From positions 1-31,122 of the IMG/VR virus record IMGVR_UViG_3300045988_093071: 31,122 nucleotides of DNA; one strand, written 5' to 3'. A program made the translations under genes and the position numbers. A model generated the notes under the pieces. The model saw only the letters and a program-made list of their open reading frames with translations. It had not been told where the DNA came from and searched no databases. Source of the DNA: a virus. This document shows, piece by piece, positions 1,101 to 31,122 of the stretch; the first letter of the stretch is position 1; every line of letters begins with the position of its first letter.

Positions 1101-3416
1101 ATGGCAAACGAAACTGAAAAGACAATTCTTCCCTATCTTAATGTCCTTGAAGTCGAAACAATAGATAAGTCAAATGTGACTAAAGTTATTGTTATTGACA
1201 AGGATGATGAAGTTAAGGTTATGGATGGTTCTCAGTTAGGAACAAACAGTTATTTTGATATTCAAAATAAGCCTGAAATTAATGGAGTTGAGTTAAATGG
1301 AAGTATGACTTCTGATGAACTTGGAATTCCGTCAGTTGAAGGTGTTGATAATCAGATTACTGAGAAACTAGCTGACTATCCAACTAAAGAAGAGGTAACT
1401 GCAGAGATTACTGAAGCCACTGCTGGAAAGCAAAATACACTTGTTCAAGGTGATGGTATAGTAATTGAAGAGAATACTGTTTCTGCAGATTATAATACTA
1501 TTCGTAACAAACCATCTTTAAATGGAACTGAATTATCTGGAGCAGCTTCAATAGTACCTGCCATTAATATTCAATCAGTCCCATCTAAAGTTACTTTAGC
1601 TCCTGTATTTGGTAATCAAACTGGAGAAGCAGTTGAACTTCCAATATATAATACAGAGACTAATCAAGCTGGTATGGTTAATGGTCCTCTATATGCACAA
1701 TTAACAGATAAATATACCAAAGCTGAAATTGATGCTTTAAATACAGCTATTAATAAAGAGATAGCTTCAAAACAGGAAACGCTTACAGCAGGAAAGAATA
1801 TATCTATTATAGATAATGTAATCTCTGCTTTTGAGAATCATTTCTTACTTAATTTAGATGAGAATGATCCTGTAAGACAGAAACATATCTATGACTTTAT
1901 TAGAACTAATCTGGACTTCTATTTATTCTGCCAGATTACATATAAAGGTGATATTATAGTTATTCCTGTTGCAACTATTGAACATCCTGAAACTATTGAT
2001 TTATATGGTTATTATTTCCAAGATAATGGTGTATTAGTAGTTATTAATGCAATCTTAGTAAATAATGGTAATATGACTGTTAAAGTTACTGAGGTTGATC
2101 TTACTAATAAAGGATATACTAAAGAAGAAGTAGATGCCAAACTTGAGGAAAAACAAGGAGTATTTACTCCACAAGCTCCATTAGCTTTTAATGAAGATAA
2201 ATCCCAATTATCTGTAGATTTATCTGGATACCAACCAGTTGGTGATTATGCTTTAAAGAGTGATATCCCAACTAAAGTTAGTGAGCTTACTAATGATTCT
2301 AACTTTGTAACTGAAGCAGAGGTTTCTGGAGATTTAGCAGGTAAAGCAGATAAGACTTATGTTGATGAGCAGCTTGCTACTAAACAGCCTGTAGGAGATT
2401 ATGCAACAAAAACAGAACTTGCTGGTAAAGCTGATTCTTCTGTGGTAGAATCTTTATCTACTCAAGTAGCAACTAATACTTCAGATATATCAATTATTAA
2501 AACAAAACAAGAAGAAGATGGAGATAAGATTGATTCTCTTGATAAAGAGATGGCTACTAAGCAAGATTTACTTGTAAGTGGAACTAATATCAAAACAATC
2601 AATAGTCAGTCTTTACTTGGAGAAGGTAATATAGAAATTGAAAGTGGCTCTAATATTCCATTTCTATTTATAAATTCCACTACTCATCTTTCTGGAGATT
2701 TCGCTGCTGTTAAGAATGCTATAGCTAATAAAACACCATTTGAGCTTTATTATGTAAATATTCTAGGTTATGGTGATATAGCAGCTCCAGAAGTATGTTT
2801 TGTTTCAGGAGAAAATATTCAAGCTACATTCCATTTTGAATCTGGCACAACTAATCATACTTTAGTTACTGCTCAGATTACTCCAACTGGAGTTTCTGTA
2901 GATAAGAGTTACCATAATTATCAAGAACAATTAGTCTCTGGGACTAATATAAAGACTATTAATGGTGAAAGTATTTTAGGAGAAGGTAATCTTGAAATAT
3001 CTGGTAGTGGAGGGACTACCGATTATACTCAGTTAACAAATAAACCTCAGATTAATTCTGTTGAACTTAGTGGTAATAAGAGTCTTGAGGATTTAGGTAT
3101 ACCAACTAAGACATCTGAGCTTACTAACGATAGCGGCTTTTTAACTTCTATTCCTGATGAATATGTTACAGAAACTGAATTAAATGCAGGATTAGGAAAT
3201 AAACAAGACACTTTAGTTAGCGGAACAAATATTAAGACAGTTAATGGAGAAAGCTTGTTAGGTAGTGGAAATATAGATATTGAGAGTGTTTCTAATCCAG
3301 TTACTTATGGAAGTGGAACTCAACCACAAGTTCATACTATTCTTGTGGTAACTCAGTCTGAATATGATGCTATTTCAAGTAAAGATCCAAATACTCAATA
3401 TTTAATTGTAGAGTAA
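1101..3416 (+). CDS. Long tail fibre (771 aa) with internal repeats
   Basis: Intact ORF. It has three copies of LVSGTNIKT[IV]N[GS][EQ]S[LI]LG[ES]GN[IL].I (about nt 2571-2640, 2931-3000, 3213-3284) and three NKP.[IL]N[GS].EL.G motifs. Fibre-type motifs LSVDLSGYQPVGDYA and SELTNDS[NG]F are present. The protein contains no Trp. Confidence 0.75.
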   Translation: MANETEKTILPYLNVLEVETIDKSNVTKVIVIDKDDEVKVMDGSQLGTNSYFDIQNKPEINGVELNGSMTSDELGIPSVEGVDNQITEKLADYPTKEEVTAEITEATAGKQNTLVQGDGIVIEENTVSADYNTIRNKPSLNGTELSGAASIVPAINIQSVPSKVTLAPVFGNQTGEAVELPIYNTETNQAGMVNGPLYAQLTDKYTKAEIDALNTAINKEIASKQETLTAGKNISIIDNVISAFENHFLLNLDENDPVRQKHIYDFIRTNLDFYLFCQITYKGDIIVIPVATIEHPETIDLYGYYFQDNGVLVVINAILVNNGNMTVKVTEVDLTNKGYTKEEVDAKLEEKQGVFTPQAPLAFNEDKSQLSVDLSGYQPVGDYALKSDIPTKVSELTNDSNFVTEAEVSGDLAGKADKTYVDEQLATKQPVGDYATKTELAGKADSSVVESLSTQVATNTSDISIIKTKQEEDGDKIDSLDKEMATKQDLLVSGTNIKTINSQSLLGEGNIEIESGSNIPFLFINSTTHLSGDFAAVKNAIANKTPFELYYVNILGYGDIAAPEVCFVSGENIQATFHFESGTTNHTLVTAQITPTGVSVDKSYHNYQEQLVSGTNIKTINGESILGEGNLEISGSGGTTDYTQLTNKPQINSVELSGNKSLEDLGIPTKTSELTNDSGFLTSIPDEYVTETELNAGLGNKQDTLVSGTNIKTVNGESLLGSGNIDIESVSNPVTYGSGTQPQVHTILVVTQSEYDAISSKDPNTQYLIVE

Positions 3417-3417
3417 T

Positions 3418-4344
3418 ATGAATATTCGAGATAATTTAAAAGCTTTTTATGTAGGTAACAGACAAGGTACTGCCATATATGTTGGCAGTACCAAAGTCTG
3501 GCCTATTGATCCTTGTAATCCTATAACCTTTATAGACCCAGAATTTGGAAGTCAAGTTAAAATGCATTTATTAGATGATAAACCTGTAACGGATTGTAAT
3601 ATAGACAGTGTAAAAAGCTGATATTATCCAAATTCTTTAAATGATTCTGCATTTACTGGTTCTGCTGTAGTTACTAACGAGGATTATAAAAAATTCAATG
3701 TTCCTGCATCTAATGATGATTATGTGGTATTTATGAGACTTTTTCAAAGTTGCGCCGATTTAACTACATTTGATACTGGAATGGTTGAAGGTGGAGAAGA
3801 TAAATTAGGATTGTTATACAATATGGGCGGTTTTTATTGTACATTACAAGGATGTACTTCATTAACTACTATTATAGGAGATTTTGATGGTTCTAAGATA
3901 TATAATTATAACTGGATGTTTGGAAATTGTAGATCTTTAATTACGGCTCCAAATATAACATTTCCTCATAGGGATTATTTAGTAACTCATACAGTTAATG
4001 TAAGCAGATTATTTGATGGTTGTACTTCATTAACCACCATACCTTTATATGATGCATATTCTTGGGAATATTTAAGTCTTACGTTTAATCGTTTATCTAA
4101 TTTAGAGAATGTTGGAGGGTTTAAAGATATAGGAAAATGCTTTACTACTAACTCCTTTGCTGGATTAAATTTTGAAGATAGCCCAAAGTTAACTAATCAA
4201 TCAGTACAGAATATAATTAATAATTTAGCTATTCCAAGAGAATCACTTGCTGGAGTTATAAAATTTGCAGAGAATGTTTACAATTCATTAACAGAGGAAC
4301 AAAAATCACAAATCACCAGTAAAGGCTGGTCAGTAACATACTAA
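3418..4344 (+). CDS. BspA-type LRR virion / receptor-binding protein, copy 2 (308 aa). In-frame TGA at 3619-3621.
   Basis: Track ORFs 3418..3621 and 3724..4344 share a frame with no TAA/TAG in the linker. LRR units F..C..LTT[IF] recur. The C-terminal YNSLTEEQKSQITSKGW tail matches copies 1 and 3. Confidence 0.8.
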
Positions 4345-4345
4345 T

Positions 4346-4567
4346 ATGAAAGTTGAAATTAAAGAAAAGTATCAAGTAGTTAAGCCTGAAGATAGTATGC
4401 TTCTGACTAACTATAAAGACGAAATGGACATTAAAGGGTATAACTCATTTAAAGAGTGTATTTGTCCATTAGATTGCGATTTAACTCATCTAAGAGAAAT
4501 ATCCCTGGAACAAGACAGGATTTATAAAGAACAAGCTGAGAAGGCTATTGAAGAATCTCTTAAATAA
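4346..4567 (+). CDS. 73-aa protein, paralog of 878..1099
   Basis: Same length, same conserved CPL/YKEQ pattern and same position as 878..1099. Confidence 0.6.
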   Translation: MKVEIKEKYQVVKPEDSMLLTNYKDEMDIKGYNSFKECICPLDCDLTHLREISLEQDRIYKEQAEKAIEESLK

Positions 4568-4574
4568 TAAAACT

Positions 4575-5228
4575 ATGATTATATTAAAGAATACTAAGAA
4601 TACTCAGACCTTCTATGTTAGTAAGAAATGTGGTATTGAGACAGCTCAGCTTCCAGTTGGTTCTTATACAAAGATTGAAGCAGATGCTAGATTTCAACCT
4701 AAAGGTAATTACATTTCTGAAGAGAAAGCAGAAGAGTTAATTGATACTAAAGTAACAGAAAGTATTGAAGATCAAGTTCCCCCTTTAGTAGATCAATCTA
4801 TAGATGCTAAGCTTGTTCCAATTAATACTGAGATTACTAATCTTAAAGGGGAAGTTGAGGAGTTAGAAACTTCTAAGATGGAAGTATTCCAAGCTAATCA
4901 ACCTCTATCTTTACATAGAAATGGAGAAGGTTTGCAACTATCTGTAGATTTAAGTAATTATGCAACTAAAGCAGAAATTCCTGATACTAGTGATTTTGCT
5001 ACTAAAGAAGAGCTTACAGCTGTAGAGAATAAGATTCCTGATGTATCTGGATTAGCTACGAAAGATGAAGTTGCACTTAAAGCAGATAAAAGTGAGTTAT
5101 CAAACTATGTAACTACAGATGCATATAATACAAAGATGACAGAGTTAGATGGAGAAATCTCAGCAATTCAAGCTCAGATTGGTAATATTTCAACTACTCT
5201 TGATACAATTAATGGTGAGGTAATCTAA
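4575..5228 (+). CDS. Short tail fibre (about 217 aa; alternative start at 4548)
   Basis: It shares PL...LSVDLS.Y.....IP and repeated ATK.E[LV] segments with the 771-aa fibre, and has a coiled-coil-like C-terminus. ATG 4575 follows the upstream stop by 7 nt, whereas ATG 4548 would overlap it by 20 nt. Confidence 0.65.
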   Translation: MIILKNTKNTQTFYVSKKCGIETAQLPVGSYTKIEADARFQPKGNYISEEKAEELIDTKVTESIEDQVPPLVDQSIDAKLVPINTEITNLKGEVEELETSKMEVFQANQPLSLHRNGEGLQLSVDLSNYATKAEIPDTSDFATKEELTAVENKIPDVSGLATKDEVALKADKSELSNYVTTDAYNTKMTELDGEISAIQAQIGNISTTLDTINGEVI

Positions 5229-6202: not shown

Positions 6203-6252
6203 TGTCAGTTTTTATTTTTTCTTAGTACTTTGAGTGAGTAAAAAACTTGACA
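6203..6252. repeat. 50-nt palindromic element, copy D (TGTCAGTTTTT ... AAAAACTTGACA)
   Basis: It starts 1 nt after the stop codon. It has the same 50-nt length and architecture as the copies at 14164, 19289 and 27872. Both arms carry the same changes relative to the other copies (TGTAAC becomes TGTCA(A)G). Confidence 0.8.
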
Positions 6253-12250: not shown

Positions 12251-12463
12251 TTAATCAAATTTTGAAATAAATGTAAAATCTCTTTGTGCTAATACTCTAT
12301 CTATAATATCTCCTAATTTCTTAGAATTCTCTTTAAATTCATTCATTCACTTATCAAACTCTTTAATAGTATCTTCTGACTTTTTAAGAGTTTCTTTAAT
12401 ATCCGCAATTCTATTTAAATATGAATCTTGGTCTAATAATAATGTATCCTTTGCTTCTAACAT
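12251..12463 (-). CDS. Small ORF (70 aa), hypothetical. In-frame TGA (plus-strand tca at 12347-12349).
   Basis: It reads MLEAKDTLLLDQDSYLNRIADIKETLKKSEDTIKEFDKWMNEFKENSKKLGDIIDRVLAQRDFTFISKFD. The start overlaps the helicase 3' end. Confidence 0.4.
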
Positions 12464-14129
12464 CCTTTTCAGTTTTAGTTGATTTTCTAACTTCAAAATA
12501 GTGTTCAATATCTGTTGCCTTTGCAGTTTTCTTTATACCTAAAGTCTTATATACATCAGCAATCCTATTCTTTAATAAAGCTAAATTGTAGAACATACCA
12601 TTCTGAATATCTCTTGTAAGTAATTTGGCAACCTTATTTGGCATATTTTTATCTGATATTTTAACAAGTTCCTCTTTAATATCTTTAATGCAATAACCCA
12701 AAGTTGCCATTCTTTCAAATCCCAGTTTATTAATTGCATCATTTAACCAAGGATATTTAATTAGAGCTTCATTTAATATAGGAGTTCCAACTTTAAATTT
12801 AGTTTCCCATTCAGCTCTTACATCTTTAATAAGCTCCTGAAATGACTTACTAGGAGCTTCAAGGTCTATCTTAATAGATTTATCTTCACATTCAGCAACC
12901 TTTATAAAGCCATTCTTTAGATATTCATTAGTAAGATTAACTCTTACAGAGTATAAACCTCTTGCAACCTTAAAATTGAATATATCTACTTTAGCCATAT
13001 TTGGGTCAAATTCAAAGGTATAATCCTCATTAATTTGAATATATGTGTCACTTGTAAAGTCTGTAATCTTCTTACGAGCTACTTCTGGAAGCTGATTGTA
13101 TGATTCAACTGCAATCTTTGTTTCTTCAATATTCTTTAATGTATTATTTTTAAATGTATCATAATCTATCTCTGCATATCTTGTGGCTGAATAAAGATGA
13201 GTAATCCAATTTAAATATTTACTATTTCTAATTCTACCAGCAATCTGTTGAATTGAAGTAGATATATCTAAAAGAGTCTGAGCTTTAGAGGAATCACTAA
13301 CTACAATAATTCTTCCATTTTCATCATAAATATCAGAACCTTCAAATACAGTAGAAGTCAATAAATTAATCTTCTTAGGTTCATCATTTACTGAAGAATT
13401 CTGAATTGGCAGTTTAGTTCTATTATTCTTAGAATATACTACTCTTGTGTTATCTGCTGTAAGTTTAGCCTTTAAAATAAGATTCTTTATAAAGTCAACA
13501 GAGTTAACAAATATATAAGCATTACCTTCAACATTTCCACTTAAAAATCCATTTATAAGCTTAATTGTGGAAGCTTCTACATTCTTGCATTTAACAGTCT
13601 GAACTTTAGTCTCAATAACATCATCCCATTCTTGTCTTACTAATGGCAATTTAGACAATTCATCTAAAACAAATTCATCTTCTAAGGGAGTAGCAGTCAT
13701 AAATGTATATTCTTTAAATAAGCTATATGTCTTTAATACATCTTTAATTGCGTCTCTTCTAAGACTATATTGATTAAATAGTATATGATATTCATCAATT
13801 AATAGGCTATAATCTTTAGGATTTACTGCTTCTATTACTTTATAAAGAGAATTATAAGTAACAATGATTTTAGGGCATTTAACTGAAGATATATAAGCTT
13901 CAATATCTGTCTTAGTAACACCTTGATAAACTCCAAAAATAGGCTCTTTACGTCTTTCATTAGGATATTGAGCAAGTTTATTCTCAACTAAACTTACAAA
14001 TGGAACACATATAACATAAGGCTTATCACACTCTAAAGCCATTGAAGTTCCACCACATCCTACTTTACCTTTGTCAAATAAGCAGTTAGTAGGTAATTCA
14101 TTGATTAAATTATTTAAATAAGTTTTCAT
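12411..14129 (-). CDS. SF2 (DEAD/DEAH-like) helicase with a C-terminal domain of unknown function (572 aa)
   Basis: Walker A is DKGKVGCGGTS, Walker B / motif II is LLIDEYH, motif III is MTATP, and motif VI is QQIAGRIRN. There is no in-frame TGA. Confidence 0.8.
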   Translation of the reverse strand: MKTYLNNLINELPTNCLFDKGKVGCGGTSMALECDKPYVICVPFVSLVENKLAQYPNERRKEPIFGVYQGVTKTDIEAYISSVKCPKIIVTYNSLYKVIEAVNPKDYSLLIDEYHILFNQYSLRRDAIKDVLKTYSLFKEYTFMTATPLEDEFVLDELSKLPLVRQEWDDVIETKVQTVKCKNVEASTIKLINGFLSGNVEGNAYIFVNSVDFIKNLILKAKLTADNTRVVYSKNNRTKLPIQNSSVNDEPKKINLLTSTVFEGSDIYDENGRIIVVSDSSKAQTLLDISTSIQQIAGRIRNSKYLNWITHLYSATRYAEIDYDTFKNNTLKNIEETKIAVESYNQLPEVARKKITDFTSDTYIQINEDYTFEFDPNMAKVDIFNFKVARGLYSVRVNLTNEYLKNGFIKVAECEDKSIKIDLEAPSKSFQELIKDVRAEWETKFKVGTPILNEALIKYPWLNDAINKLGFERMATLGYCIKDIKEELVKISDKNMPNKVAKLLTRDIQNGMFYNLALLKNRIADVYKTLGIKKTAKATDIEHYFEVRKSTKTEKDVRSKGYIIIRPRFIFK

Positions 14130-14163: not shown

Positions 14164-14213
14164 TGTAACTTTTTTTATTTATCTTACTACAAAATATTAG
14201 TAAAAAAGTTACA
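14164..14213. repeat. 50-nt palindromic element, copy A (TGTAACTTTTTT ... AAAAAAGTTACA, 12-bp perfect stem)
   Basis: It lies 35 nt upstream of the helicase ATG, inside the predicted helicase leader. The architecture matches the other three copies. Confidence 0.8.
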
Positions 14214-14248: not shown

Positions 14249-14287
14249 CTCAATTTTCAATATGGAAGTAGTTTTAGTTTGATAGTA

Positions 14288-14319
14288 CAAAGATAATACA
14301 TAAAATTTCAATTTCCAAA
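14288..14319 (-). promoter_or_regulatory. Bacteroidota-type promoter P-left-1 (TTTG-N20-TATCTTTG on the minus strand)
   Basis: On the plus strand, CAAAGATA at 14288-14295 and CAAA at 14316-14319 are separated by exactly 20 nt. This matches the -33 TTTG / -7 TAnnTTTG consensus. Confidence 0.6.
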
Positions 14320-14376
14320 TATTTTTGCAATTATTTTTAATAAATTTTTTATTTATTATCTCTTACTTTCATAGTA

Positions 14377-14408
14377 CAAATATACAACATTATTTTTAAA
14401 TCTCCAAA
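14377..14408 (-). promoter_or_regulatory. Bacteroidota-type promoter P-left-2 (TTTG-N20-TATATTTG on the minus strand)
   Basis: On the plus strand, CAAATATA at 14377-14384 and CAAA at 14405-14408 have a 20-nt spacer. It lies 89 bp from P-left-1 within an imperfect direct repeat. Confidence 0.6.
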
Positions 14409-14456
14409 TATTTTTATGAAAAATTTTAAATTTTTTTTGAAAAAGTTGTTAAAAAA

Positions 14457-14533: not shown

Positions 14534-14773
14534 ATGAAAAATATATTTAAATATGCAATTATTGCAACGATTATTTTAATGGGAATAGCTGGTATTAGAG
14601 TATATAATGCTTATGGAGACTACCAAACTAAAACATTTGAGCTTAGATTAGAACAGGCAGAACTCCAGCATAAATTAGACTCTGTAATGTGGCATAATCC
14701 TGGAAGTTCAGAAGTATCTGAATTATATGAACAGTATTGTGATGTAACCTTAAAAATTCATAATGTAAGATAA
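14534..14773 (+). CDS. Small membrane protein (79 aa), hypothetical early gene
   Basis: Intact ORF with an N-terminal TM segment (YAIIATIILMGIAGI). Confidence 0.5.
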   Translation: MKNIFKYAIIATIILMGIAGIRVYNAYGDYQTKTFELRLEQAELQHKLDSVMWHNPGSSEVSELYEQYCDVTLKIHNVR

Positions 14774-15210
14774 TGAAAACAGATATAAGAAGCTTAGTCT
14801 TTATAAAGAATCTATTTAAAGATAAATATAATATAGAAATAGAATGATGTAAAGACGATTATTCCAGATATGATGGAACATTTACTTGGAATAATATAGA
14901 TTATATAATTGAAGTTAAAAGGAGAAGATTTAAATCCGATAAATATCCAACTACAATTATAAATAGGGATAAGTTTGATATACTTAGTAAATGTAACTCT
15001 ATATTAGTCATTATATTTGATGATGGAGTTTATATTTATAAAGATGTAAAAAGAGCTTTTATTAAAGATTCAATGAAATATGGAAGAAGTACAACTGATT
15101 TTGGAGGAGAATATAAATACTCTTTAAAAACAGAGTTATCTTTAAAGAAAGCAATTAAATTAGAAATAGACACAACTTTTAGTAATTATATAAGAAATGA
15201 CGACATATAA
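14773..15210 (+). CDS. PD-(D/E)XK-like nuclease-fold protein (145 aa). In-frame TGA at 14845.
   Basis: The ATG overlaps the upstream stop (TAATG). It reads ..IEWCKDDYSRYDGTFTWNNIDYIIEVKRRRF.., giving a D...E-V-K catalytic-type motif. It is missed by the ORF track because of the TGA. Confidence 0.4.
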
Positions 15211-15688
15211 GGCAATACCTGGATATGAAAACTATTTAATAGGAACTGACGGTTCGGTCTGGAGTACTAGAACCTCAGTTCCGAAAAATATCAAACCTCA
15301 ACTCCAAAATAGTGGATATTATTATGTTACTTTATATAATCAGTTTGGGCAAAAGAAATATCTAATACATAGACTAGTGGCAGAAGTTTTCATAGGTAAA
15401 AGTGACTTATGTATTAACCATAAGGATGAAAATAAGCTAAATAATAACTTAGATAATTTAGAGTACTGTACTTATGAATATAACAATAATTATGGCAGTC
15501 ATAATATTAAAGTAGGAATTTCTCATAAGAAAGCAATTAGACAGCTATCATTAGATGGAAGTTTGATTAAGAGATGAGATTCCGCAATAGATGCTGAACG
15601 GGGACTTAATATACAATCCAGAAACATTGTAAAAGTTCTTAAAGGTCAGCGAAAAACAGCTGGAGGGTTTATTTGGGAATATGAATAA
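15197..15688 (+). CDS. Free-standing HNH homing endonuclease (NUMOD4 + HNH_3-like, 163 aa). In-frame TGA at 15575.
   Basis: It has YKAIPGYENYLIGTDGSVWS (NUMOD4-like), HRLVAEVFIG...INHKDENKLNNNLDNLE (HNH), and a C-terminal AIDAERGLNIQSRNIVKVLKG helix-turn-helix after the TGA. Confidence 0.8.
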
Positions 15689-15989
15689 CAATGAAATAAT
15701 AGAGAAATACTATCCGTTTATTATGGAGTTAAAAGAAAAATTTGGTGCAGATGACGATTGCACACAAATGGTCTGCATTGCACTTCTAGAAACATCTAAT
15801 TCCAAGCTTCAGTCATTAGATAGTAAGAATGAGCTGAAGTATTGGATTACAAGAGTATTTAAGAATAATTGGTTTTCTAAGAATAGTAGATACTATTACC
15901 AATATAAAAAGTACTATGAAATATTTAAAGAGCCATTAGAACAACAAACGGATAATTTAGAGGATTGGTTAAATGAAGCAGAAGATTAA
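15681..15989 (+). CDS. Sigma-70 region-2-like protein (102 aa), N-terminal piece of a two-piece sigma-like factor
   Basis: The pattern IIEKYYPFIMELKEKFGADDDCTQMVCIALLE...LKYWITRVFKNNWFSKNSRYY matches the ECF-type region 2 layout (..y.p.i......g...d.d..Q.v...l......W..ri..N...d..R). Confidence 0.5.
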   Translation: MNNNEIIEKYYPFIMELKEKFGADDDCTQMVCIALLETSNSKLQSLDSKNELKYWITRVFKNNWFSKNSRYYYQYKKYYEIFKEPLEQQTDNLEDWLNEAED

Positions 15990-16218
15990 TATTGATGATT
16001 TATTAATTGAGTATAACTTTGAAATAGATACCTTTACAGAGATGGATGATAGATTACTTGCAATTTATCCGAAATGAGAGGCATTAAATAGAGCAGATAA
16101 GACTATAATTATCTTATATGCTGAATATCGAAGTTATAGAGAAGTTGGGAAGATTCTGGGAATTAGTCATACGACTATTCAGAGATTTATTAAACAAATA
16201 AGAGAGAGATTATGTTAA
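15973..16218 (+). CDS. Sigma-70 region-4-like HTH protein (81 aa), C-terminal piece. In-frame TGA at 16075.
   Basis: It reads ..YPKWEALNRADKTIIILYAEYRSYREVGKILGISHTTIQRFIKQIRERL, a region 4.2-type HTH. It is in the +1 frame relative to the upstream piece, overlaps it by 17 nt, and has a TAA directly upstream of its ATG in its own frame. Confidence 0.55.
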
Positions 16219-16538
16219 GCATACTTTTTATAGCTATTATTCTTGTCTTCTGCATTGATTTATCTGGAGCTATGGACAAGGCAAATAGATGGGTATGAAG
16301 TAAACTATATCCTGGAGTTAAATATACTGATTGGTCTATACCTTTATTTGGATGTTCTCTATGCTGCACTTGGTGGGCAAGTTTACTATATATCTTAGTA
16401 ACTGGACAATTAAGCTTCTTAATGATTGCATATATTGCTTTAATTGCATTTATGACTCCAGTTATAAAGGATTGTATGATTCTAATTAAAGATATGATTA
16501 CCAAACTAATAGATATAGTTTATAAATACTTGGATTAA
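16212..16538 (+). CDS. Membrane protein (108 aa, about 3 TM segments, CSLCC motif). In-frame TGA at 16296.
   Basis: It reads MLSILFIAIILVFCIDLSGAMDKANRWVWSKLYPGVKYTDWSIPLFGCSLCCTWWASLLYILVTGQLSFLMIAYIALIAFMTPVIKDCMILIKDMITKLIDIVYKYLD. It replaces the antisense track ORF 16190..16504. Confidence 0.6.
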
Positions 16539-16560
16539 AAATAATATATTTTAAATAAAA

Positions 16561-16893
16561 ATGAAAGAATTAACAAAAGAACAGTATGAATATTTAAGTA
16601 AATTCGATAATAGGTTTAAATGTGCTGTTAGAGCTAACTATTGTCGTAATATCCAAAAGGAAGATACTGAAAGAATGAGAGCTATTTATGAGGAACTAAT
16701 AGAGCAGCCATATAAAATGAATATAAACTGCGGAACTTGTGTTCTTAACCTTATAAAGAGACTTGGAGTTTACTACTTTGAATATGTTGAAAAACTAAAA
16801 ACTATTGAGGATGAAGGAGCAAATAAAGAAGAAAGTAGGGAGACCGAAAAAGGCAGAGGTAGAAAAGGAACAAATAGACGAAGTAAAGACTAA
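16561..16893 (+). CDS. Hypothetical protein with Cys pairs (110 aa)
   Basis: Intact ORF with CAVRANYC and CGTC motifs and a Lys/Arg-rich tail. The last 83 nt overlap the next gene in another frame. Confidence 0.45.
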   Translation: MKELTKEQYEYLSKFDNRFKCAVRANYCRNIQKEDTERMRAIYEELIEQPYKMNINCGTCVLNLIKRLGVYYFEYVEKLKTIEDEGANKEESRETEKGRGRKGTNRRSKD

Positions 16894-19288: not shown

Positions 19289-19338
19289 TGTAACCTTTTT
19301 ACTCATATTTGGTACTAAGATAATATAAAAAAGTTACA
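19289..19338. repeat. 50-nt palindromic element, copy C
   Basis: TGTAACCTTTTTA ... TAAAAAAGTTACA starts 1 nt after the -1-frame stop codon. Confidence 0.8.
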
Positions 19339-19366: not shown

Positions 19367-19405
19367 TATAGCTACTAATATTCAGAACAATATATTTTAT
19401 AAAAA

Positions 19406-19885
19406 ATGACAAGTCAAGATTTAAAATTCCCTAATCTTGAAGGAGTACTAAGACAATATGGAAGTCAATTGATTTCAATATATAGACAGAAGTTATTACA
19501 GAATAATGCTGATGATACAGGTACATTAGGTAATACTTTAAACTACATTGTTGAGGATCAAGATGGAATTTATGAAGTCAGCTTACAAATTCAAGATTAC
19601 TGAAAGTATTTGGAAGAAGGTAGATCTCCAGGTAAATTTCCACCTATTAGTGAAATAAAGAATTGGATAAGAACTAAACCTGTATTACCAAGACCTTATG
19701 GAGGTAAACTTCCATCTACAGATCAACTTGCATACTTAGTTGCAAGAAAGATTCATTTACAAGGAACACAAGGAAAGCGTATATTAGAAGAATCTTTAGA
19801 TGAGCTTTCGGCTGTTGCATTGTTAGATGATGCAATTACAAAAGATTTAGAAACGCAAGTTAATAATGTATTTAAAGACTTTTAA
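19406..19885 (+). CDS. Virion morphogenesis or neck protein candidate (159 aa). In-frame TGA at 19601.
   Basis: Track ORFs 19406..19603 and 19610..19885 share a frame. The junction reads ..LQIQDYWKYLEEGRSPGKFPP.. It is the first gene of the tail operon. The function is a guess. Confidence 0.55.
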
Positions 19886-25000: not shown

Positions 25001-25543
25001 TCTACTTTAGGTAAATACATAGAAGTAAGTGACCCAGAAGTTACTGTAGGGTATGAAGCTGGAAGTAAAGTTGTAACTATAGAATCTAATGTTCCTTGGA
25101 AAGTTAGTTGGTATAATAATTTGAAGATTACAAATATTTCACCAATGGAAGGATTACCTGGAATTAGTACTATGACTATTGAATATAATGAAAATCCTAA
25201 ATATATTGAAGATAACTTCTATTTAAGTTTAGTAGCTCAATCTGATATTTATGAAAGATTAGGACAAGTATATTTTTATCAAACTCCTGATCCATCTAAA
25301 TCAGTAAAGCTTTCTGGAAAAGTAACAGATGCAGATGGTAAAGTATTAGATGTACAACCTTATATCTATGTAGATAATGACAACTTTGTAGATAGTACAT
25401 ATTGTGATGCAACAACTGGAGAGTACTATTTATATGTTCAAAAAGGAGTTCCATTCCATTTTGAAGTACAATTATCAAGTGTTGTTAAATATGAGGAAGA
25501 ACTTACTTTAAATGCAGATACTATTAAAAATATTACTATTTAA
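22094..25543 (+). CDS. Very large tail tip or baseplate protein (1149 aa) ending in BACON-like and CarboxypepD_reg-like domains. In-frame TGAs at 23123, 23738 and 24035.
   Basis: Track ORFs 22094..23125, 23225..23740 and 24044..25543 share one frame with clean linkers. The C-terminus reads ..VTVGYEAGSKVVTIESNVPWKVSWYNNLKITNISPMEGLPGISTMTIEYNENP.. and then ..LSGKVTDADGKVLDVQPYIYVD..DATTGEYYLYVQKGVPFHFEV.. Confidence 0.7.
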
Positions 25544-27871: not shown

Positions 27872-27921
27872 TGTAACTTTTTTATTCTTATTAACTACAA
27901 AATATGAGTAAAAAGGTTACA
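27872..27921. repeat. 50-nt palindromic element, copy B
   Basis: TGTAACTTTTTTA ... TAAAAAGGTTACA lies 10 nt after the TAG stop. Its loop is nearly identical to that of copy A (CTACAAAATAT[TG]AG). Confidence 0.8.
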
Positions 27922-30757: not shown

Positions 30758-31122
30758 ATGGCTATTAAATATACAACACCAGAAGTGGCAAAGAATACAA
30801 CTTCAAGAGATATTGAAGCTTTAGCTGCTCAAGAATGTAAATTACAGGAGAAGTCTGTAGAATATACTCAGAATGCTGAGTTCGTTGTAACTCCAGATGA
30901 GGGTTATGATGGTATGTCGAAAGTAAATGTATCTGTTGATGTTGTTGTTCCTACAGTACAAGCTACTAAAGAGATTACAATTACATCTAACGGATTAATA
31001 GATATTTTACCTGATCCAGATTATGATGTTATGGAGAAGGTTTCTGCACAAATAAATGTTCCAGTACCAACTCCTACTTTACAAGAGAAACATATAACAA
31101 TAGATAAAAACCTATCAATGAC
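30758..31122 (+). CDS. 5' part of LRR protein copy 1 (continues at nt 56 -> 878 through the circular junction)
   Basis: ATG 30758 follows the 18-nt conserved start context. The frame is open to the window end and in phase with nt 3 onward at the start of the window. Confidence 0.8.
   Translation, partial: MAIKYTTPEVAKNTTSRDIEALAAQECKLQEKSVEYTQNAEFVVTPDEGYDGMSKVNVSVDVVVPTVQATKEITITSNGLIDILPDPDYDVMEKVSAQINVPVPTPTLQEKHITIDKNLSM
31068..31122. repeat. Terminal overlap, second copy (identical to 1-55)
   Basis: Exact identity to the first 55 nt of the window. Confidence 0.95.

Follow-up and report, generated by a model that had tools for sequence, protein, structure and literature searches.

The stretch of DNA analyzed here (the window) is the 31,122-nucleotide (nt) IMG/VR virus record IMGVR_UViG_3300045988_093071. 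It is a complete circular (or terminally redundant) phage-like genome with a GC content of ~30%, bases 1-55 being identical to bases 31068-31122, which gives a unit of 31,067 bp; the sizes of related contigs cluster at 29-33 kb. On its plus strand lie two overlapping genes, ORF1 and ORF2, in which an initial annotation had seen a sigma-70-family factor split in two. The locus is organized as follows.

15681..15989, plus strand: ORF1, from ATG 15681 to TAA 15987-15989; 102 amino acids (aa), with a sigma-2-like domain (regions 2.1-2.4, residues ~1-79) and an acidic C-terminal tail (residues 80-102)
15973..16218, plus strand: ORF2, from ATG 15973 to TAA 16216-16218; 81 aa with TGA read as Trp, with a sigma-4-like helix-turn-helix (HTH; residues ~36-81) after an acidic 35-residue N-terminal segment
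15973..15989, plus strand: the ORF1/ORF2 overlap, 17 nt (ATGAAGCAGAAGATTAA), containing the ORF1 stop and the ORF2 start, in the +1 frame
16075..16077, plus strand: the in-frame TGA of ORF2, read as Trp and corresponding to the invariant W35 of the ORF2 family

The coordinates, the 17-nt overlap, the +1 frame of ORF2 relative to ORF1 (start offset 15973 - 15681 = 292), the TAA at 15970-15972 and the reading of TGA 16075 as Trp all hold as first annotated. The TAA lies in the frame of ORF2 immediately 5' of its ATG, and therefore no single upstream indel can fuse ORF1 and ORF2, as had been argued for a simple upstream frameshift. Overlaps of 14-35 nt are found at 7 of the 34 gene junctions of the genome, thus an overlap of 17 nt is ordinary here.

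Under code 11, ORF2 would stop after 34 aa, and translation under code 4 (TGA as a sense codon) yields a tight tiling of plus-strand genes. The long plus-strand ORFs contain 33 TGA and 75 TGG codons. When orthologues were compared between the window and its relatives, TGA was exchanged for TGG in 63 cases and for a Gly codon in one, which demonstrates that TGA encodes Trp across the whole genome. Since no tRNA gene is present in the window, reading of TGA as Trp is probably a property of the host itself. Four more distant relatives that share the split sigma, L012 and L015-L017, use the standard code, in that they lack in-frame TGA codons and terminate genes at TGA; the split is thus independent of the code-4 recoding.

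The motifs first noted, an ECF-type (extracytoplasmic function) region-2 layout in ORF1 and a region-4.2 HTH in ORF2, are present in the translations. Homology to sigma factors was assessed with TIGR02937, the NCBIfam model of the sigma70-ECF superfamily (165 positions; curated whole-protein cutoff 42.9 bits). Residues 4-95 of ORF1 match profile positions 4-105 (E = 3.4e-5, 23.6 bits, alone below the cutoff), and residues 33-80 of ORF2 match positions 113-161 (E = 3.7e-6, 26.7 bits). An artificial concatenation of ORF1 and ORF2 matches positions 4-161 with residues 4-177 (E = 8.8e-13) and, at 48.2 bits, exceeds the curated cutoff. Within the ORF1 family the model is matched by 10 of 24 members, and non-sigma models by none. 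In hhalign comparisons with Escherichia coli RpoE, the family motif DL.Q..L.LLE aligns with RpoE DVVQEAFIKAYR (regions 2.1/2.2) and EL..FI.RI..N aligns with FYTWLYRIAVN (regions 2.3/2.4), so that the register is right; the region 2.2 and region 2.3/2.4 motifs are nearly invariant in the family. The AlphaFold2 model of ORF1 has a four-helix bundle at residues 1-65 (predicted local distance difference test, pLDDT, 88-97), and that of ORF2 has an HTH at residues 31-80 (pLDDT 81-90). In PHROG, ORF2 matches families of sigma-4 and HTH proteins.

An exhaustive search with a profile of the ORF1 family (E <= 1e-3) retrieved 493 representative clusters, most of ~100 aa. The 151 best clusters with a usable domain include 131 of at most 135 aa and 18 long single-chain forms (156-245 aa), in which an ORF1-like domain is followed by a linker and then by an ORF2-like HTH; the fused relatives that the initial annotation proposed to look for thus exist. 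TIGR02937 is matched by 16 of the 20 long (156-245 aa) proteins in alignment A2 (best E = 1.6e-11). In the 156-aa protein P0154, the N-terminal part shares 40% identity with ORF1 and the C-terminal part 44% with ORF2, and the P0154 locus (L013) is flanked by orthologues of two genes that also flank the pair in the window.

14773..15210, plus strand: gene of 145 aa with a D..EVK motif resembling PD-(D/E)xK nucleases; the syntenic upstream neighbour in all relatives
16212..16538, plus strand: membrane protein of 108 aa with three transmembrane segments and a conserved CxxC..W motif; matches phrog_19792 ("membrane protein") at E = 3.7e-4

The 145-aa protein, which has no match in Pfam or PHROG, is 36% identical to its counterpart in L013, encoded just before the fused sigma there (E = 7e-30), and 75% identical to its counterpart in L007. 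The membrane-protein gene directly follows the sigma gene or genes always, whether split or fused, with syntenic homologues in L007, L012, L013, L015, L016 and L017 (E = 1e-54 to 6e-11; 9e-11 for the orthologue at the P0154 locus). P0154 is therefore a single-chain version at the same syntenic locus. Every stand-alone ORF1 homologue with context examined (the window clade, L007, L012, L015, L016 and L017; 35-51% identical to ORF1) is followed by a separate, overlapping ORF2 homologue and then by the same membrane protein. The split pair is thereby found in six diverged lineages, four of which are the standard-code relatives above. ORF1 homologues from other assemblies measure 97-104 aa, except one 157-aa call with part of an HNH protein left at its N-terminus; P0013 is an ORF1 homologue joined to a degenerate N-terminal HNH remnant. 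Full-length ORF2 homologues measure 79-88 aa, five shorter entries (47-58 aa) covering the query only partly, and a single ORF2 variant has index entries in 874 blocks of the contig collection. In a nearest-neighbour analysis, which is confounded by fragmentary gene calls, fused and short forms appear intermixed.

A clear homologue of the pair was found by blastn and tblastn in no cultured phage record searched. Against 50,697 GenBank phage records, tblastn gave no match for ORF1 or for the fused P0196 and a single marginal match for ORF2 (E = 4e-3, an unannotated faecal contig); blastn matches were to HNH genes only, and a scan of GTDB genomes for prophage copies found none.

The pair lies three genes before TerL, the gene order being sigma pair, membrane protein, a gene of 110 aa, a gene of 149 aa and TerL. 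The genes for the head protease, major head protein, portal, terminase and endolysin are all on one long plus-strand unit that starts ~1 kb upstream of ORF1. The pair is near the start of this unit, ahead of the terminase, head, tail and lysis genes. The late activators of Gram-positive phages are encoded at this place, immediately upstream of terS and the late operon (PMC3753634), and because of this position we propose a two-subunit late sigma: ORF1 and ORF2 probably act together as a bipartite sigma on the host RNA polymerase.

Several results weigh against this reading. In Pfam, the domain assignments that the initial annotation had suggested checking divide between the two proteins, in that ORF1 has no match even at E = 10, Sigma70_r2 included, and ORF2 comes just short of Sigma70_r4_2, at 25.2 bits (E = 1.3e-5), 0.5 bit under the cutoff of 25.7, with Sigma70_r4 at E = 1.4e-4 and the generic HTH_50 as its best match (34.3 bits, above cutoff). 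The hhalign comparisons with the single RpoE sequence are statistically weak (E = 0.034 with the stand-alone family, E = 0.0082 with the fused one). Among PDB sequences, profiles of the ORF1 family (close, A1; broad, A3) found no significant sigma, the best being 5uxx at E = 1.1 and the top match a spurious Cdc13. In Foldseek searches of the PDB, the ORF1 model gave nothing significant, and the ORF2 model returned sigma-4 domains (CnrH, SigW, SigD, sigma-E region 4) intermingled with other HTH proteins, all at E > 0.3 and hence not separable from them. Finally, target promoters of the pair were sought in the phage genome and none was identified. The PHROG scan of ORF1 gave only phrog_28330 at E = 0.6, nothing significant and hence no annotated sigma family, and the matches of the ORF1 model in a Foldseek search of BFVD were all uncharacterised proteins from phages, 160-232 aa long and probably fused relatives. 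With structure searches being non-discriminating, the assignment to sigma factors is supported by the collinear TIGR02937 matches and by the relatives, the fused forms in particular.

A different function for the same proteins would be that they descend from a sigma factor and no longer act as one. ORF2 would then be a conventional late activator of the RinA/ArpU/LtrA class and ORF1 a separate protein, e.g., a sigma-2-like decoy that displaces or inhibits the host sigma at the beta-prime clamp helices. The generic HTH_50 match of ORF2, the location of its gene where Ltr activators sit and the weak similarity of ORF1 to sigma-2 would all agree with this, as would the LtrA family, whose similarity to sigma factors is to region 4 only (PMC3753634). 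The insertion of an HNH gene between the two ORFs in some relatives (described below) shows furthermore that their contiguity is dispensable. However, at all loci examined the two ORFs are adjacent and strictly co-conserved, the split pair alternates with single-chain forms at the same locus, ORF1 retains its nearly invariant region 2.2 and 2.3/2.4 motifs, and neither ORF has a Pfam match to ArpU, RinA or DUF1492. We thus consider an activator with a separate ORF1 unlikely, and favor a bipartite sigma.

If the two ORFs were joined by a programmed +1 frameshift within 15973-15989 (e.g., at GAT TAA T), a single-chain sigma would be made and the separate ORFs would be only apparent. ORF2 is indeed in the +1 frame in all six split lineages, and the frames would be joined if ribosomes shifted by +1 at the stop of ORF1; +1-frame overlaps are, however, the norm at the other gene junctions of the window genome. 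The ORF1/ORF2 junctions differ between lineages in sequence and in length of overlap (8, 14, 17, 20, 26 and 50 nt), no shared slippery or shift-prone motif was found at the junctions of the relatives, and ORF2 always has its own ATG. The most decisive point comes from L004-L006, represented by several independent assemblies (contigs of 19-33 kb), in which a 171-aa HNH homing-endonuclease gene lies between ORF1 and ORF2. This HNH cassette substitutes ORF1 from codon ~80 on and rejoins exactly at the ATG of ORF2, making a translational fusion impossible there. A programmed frameshift is accordingly highly improbable.

HNH genes are found at other positions around the pair as well, including one in the window.

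15197..15688, plus strand: HNH homing endonuclease (NUMOD4 / HNH_3 / I-HmuI NUMOD-like), directly upstream of ORF1; genomic context and not part of the sigma

The position before ORF1 is occupied in the window and in L010, and is empty in L001-L003, L009 and L011; an HNH gene after ORF2 is present in L001, L003, L004 and L006. Because every junction around the pair carries an HNH gene in some relative, the junctions are true gene boundaries. Genes of the GIY-YIG/T5orf172 type also lie near the sigma pair, on the opposite strand, and the region is a mobile endonuclease hotspot. A group I intron carrying the HNH gene was considered and rejected, as what is inserted in L005 amounts to little more than the HNH ORF, with no space for a ribozyme. 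A split intein or trans-splicing was likewise rejected, as the ORF1 tail has only ~23 aa and intein boundary residues are absent.

Both ORFs are under purifying selection, with pN (nonsynonymous) at 0.14-0.33 and thus far below pS (synonymous) at 0.69-0.94 in ORF1, and a ratio of nonsynonymous to synonymous substitution rates (dN/dS) of 0.13-0.24 in ORF2. The pair could also be a sigma gene inactivated by frameshift mutation, or reflect an indel from assembly or sequencing, and one could cite for this the single-chain homologue at the same locus in L013. Such a reading is effectively refuted by this selection and by conservation of the same split in hundreds of independent assemblies and in lineages only 35-50% identical, besides the TAA before the ORF2 ATG. 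With the collinear profile matches, the natural single-chain homologues, conservation, selection and the HNH interruption all in agreement, the split of a sigma-70-family factor into two genes is borne out, and we hold with high confidence that ORF1 and ORF2 are separately translated sigma-2 and sigma-4 homologues that arose by gene fission.

The break is located in the former sigma-2/sigma-4 linker. The ORF1 core (residues 1-79) is mildly basic, with an isoelectric point (pI) of 8.5, and the tail (residues 80-102) is strongly acidic (pI 4.05; whole ORF1, pI 4.7). The N-terminal segment of ORF2 (residues 1-35) is acidic (pI 4.2) with many positions invariant in the family, and its HTH region is basic (pI 9.7; whole ORF2, pI 6.6). 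The linker of the fused P0154 is acidic too. Where the HNH cassette supplies the ORF1 tail, the tail has another sequence and is still acidic, with the D-LE-[DE]-[WY] pattern retained. In ECF holoenzyme structures, the acidic sigma-2/sigma-4 linker fills the active-site cleft and the RNA exit channel, and it is thought to be important for initiation and promoter escape. The acidic stumps of ORF1 and ORF2 may still occupy the cleft and the exit channel.

A mechanism can be proposed on these grounds, in which RNA polymerase binding, two-subunit assembly and promoter specificity are what we infer from the comparisons. An ECF-type (group 4-like) sigma gene has been split by fission within the sigma-2/sigma-4 linker, whose two putative stumps are the acidic end of ORF1 and the conserved acidic segment at the start of ORF2. 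Translation of the two polypeptides is presumed to be coupled through the 17-nt overlap and would probably yield similar levels of both. By way of its region 2.2-like helix, in which D26 and Q29 are nearly invariant, ORF1 would dock on the beta-prime clamp helices of the host enzyme, and it would be in charge of -10 recognition and melting. ORF2 would dock on the beta-flap, with its HTH reading a -35-like element. The most likely role of the pair would be to switch the host RNA polymerase to phage late promoters. The pair together with the membrane protein resembles a sigma/anti-sigma operon, and one may speculate that the membrane protein is a functional, anti-sigma-like partner.

A 50-nt element had initially been put forward, along with the conserved start context, as a candidate target of the sigma factor.

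14164-14213, 19289-19338 and 27872-27921, with a variant at 6203-6252: 50-nt palindromic element (TGTAACYTTTTT-N26-AAAAARGTTACA) at module boundaries

On the plus strand the element contains TGTAAC-N17-(C/G)TAC, resembling ECF promoters, and the enrichment of the TGTAAC-N17-STAC pattern is due solely to the palindromic copies. The two arms change together (TGTAAC/GTTACA versus TGTCAG/CTTGACA), keeping the palindrome, among the copies of the window as well as between the window and L009-L011; the second flavour (TGTCAG...CTTGACA) is that of the copy at 6203 and of the corresponding site in L009-L011. The recognition helix of ORF2 is constant across the element variants, and a GC-rich hairpin and T tract follow the element in three of the four copies. 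The element is thus a weak candidate and was rejected as an ECF-type sigma target; given the co-varying arms, the constant helix and the hairpins, it fits better as a hairpin, operator or dimer-binding site than as an asymmetric -35/-10 promoter.

Other potential signals were observed in the window. Two tandem repeats of ~76 nt (14274-14349 and 14363-14438) lie in the divergent intergenic region, the first with a sigma-70-like TTGATA-16-TAAAAT match, and are candidate early promoters of the rightward unit that contains the sigma genes. The start codons of most plus-strand genes are preceded by A/T-rich sequence without a Shine-Dalgarno motif (e.g., at 16534-16563 and 19380-19408), and a AATATATTTTA-N5/6-ATG motif recurs ahead of the genes at 16561 and 19406. 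AATATATTTTA could be a -10-like element yielding near-leaderless mRNAs, or a translation-initiation context. Elsewhere in the genome, short in-frame repeat families at 384-566, 1373-5220 and 25057-25190 lie within large structural genes, suggesting a repetitive domain architecture of what are likely tail or fibre proteins. The short divergent unit contains the following gene.

12411-14129, minus strand: protein of 572 aa with Walker-A-like (GKVGCGGTS) and DEYH motifs and no PHROG match; probably the replication helicase or primase of the phage

More broadly, a large undescribed phage lineage (hundreds of 50%-identity clusters, very abundant in metagenome assemblies) may use a fissioned ECF-type sigma in which fission and fusion have toggled repeatedly, with the downstream CxxC membrane protein as its possible dedicated regulator; for this wider proposition we see the chances as evenly balanced. 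If the pair is indeed a bipartite sigma, the sigma-2/sigma-4 linker would be dispensable as a covalent tether in nature, and a widespread natural family with a cut linker and single-chain relatives at the same locus would offer a comparative system for the contribution of that tether. It would also suggest a way in which small phages that lack a polymerase redirect that of the host, and natural split sigma pairs would offer orthogonal parts for synthetic AND-gate circuits. As neither Pfam nor PHROG currently has a family for ORF1-like proteins, virome annotation misses phage sigma factors of this type.

No account of such a split phage sigma was found in a literature search. Among known phage regulators, the Ltr superfamily (RinA, ArpU, LtrA, LtrB/DUF1492 and LtrC) includes LtrA, with Sigma70_r4 similarity (PMC3753634). 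The Ltr activators share with the phage pair their position ahead of late genes, but they are single basic proteins of ~130 aa (pI > 8) that bind repeats upstream of the late promoter, whereas here there are two proteins, of which ORF1 is acidic. The "positive control factor" Xpf of PBSX is an ECF-like sigma of phage or prophage origin, group 4-like, with sigma-2 and sigma-4 (PMC10141391). The fused members of the family have the same domain content and the same location before late genes, and NCBIfam scans of the pair and of the long relatives gave weak matches to PRK06930 ("positive control sigma-like factor"). Xpf and the fused members, however, are one polypeptide with an intact linker, whereas the phage pair has a cut linker with an acidic stump on each half. 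ECF-type (group 4) members of the sigma-70 family have both domains on one polypeptide, joined by a linker; ORF1 and ORF2 lie in two reading frames and start and stop independently.

In T4, the sigma-2-like gp55 and the small beta-flap-bound gp33 jointly replace the host sigma for late genes, with the gp45 clamp, and T4 late promoters require the sliding clamp. The gp33 protein is not known to contain a sigma-4 HTH or to read a -35 element. ORF2, unlike gp33, is a true sigma-4-type HTH, and no homology of ORF1 or ORF2 to gp55 or gp33 was found in the PHROG scan. The resemblance to gp55/gp33, which the initial annotation offered as a loose precedent for an unusual two-subunit sigma, is therefore one of analogy only, and such a sigma is not unprecedented, given a closer case in Bacillus.

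The closest precedent is SigO-RsoA (YvrI-YvrHa) of B. subtilis, which is described as having its sigma-2-like and sigma-4-like domains on two small co-transcribed proteins that jointly direct transcription (PMC8103513, PMC7826278). In both systems the sigma-2-like and sigma-4-like functions reside on two separate proteins, and the conserved membrane protein gene after the phage pair resembles the membrane regulator of SigO-RsoA (2016 paper, cited in PMC10141391). No model named for SigO or RsoA was among the matches listed by NCBIfam scans with E as high as 10, the existence of such models being unconfirmed. SigO-RsoA is a cellular stress regulator, whereas ORF1 and ORF2 are phage-borne and would extend the idea of a two-subunit sigma from one Bacillus stress regulator to phages. 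SigO, of ~22.5 kDa, has additional sigma-like regions, whereas the phage ORF2 is minimal, at 81 aa. In the SigO-RsoA gene order, the sigma-4 protein comes first and RsoA second; in the phage, sigma-2 comes first, as a simple fission predicts. Unlike SigO-RsoA, the phage lineage alternates between single-chain and split forms.

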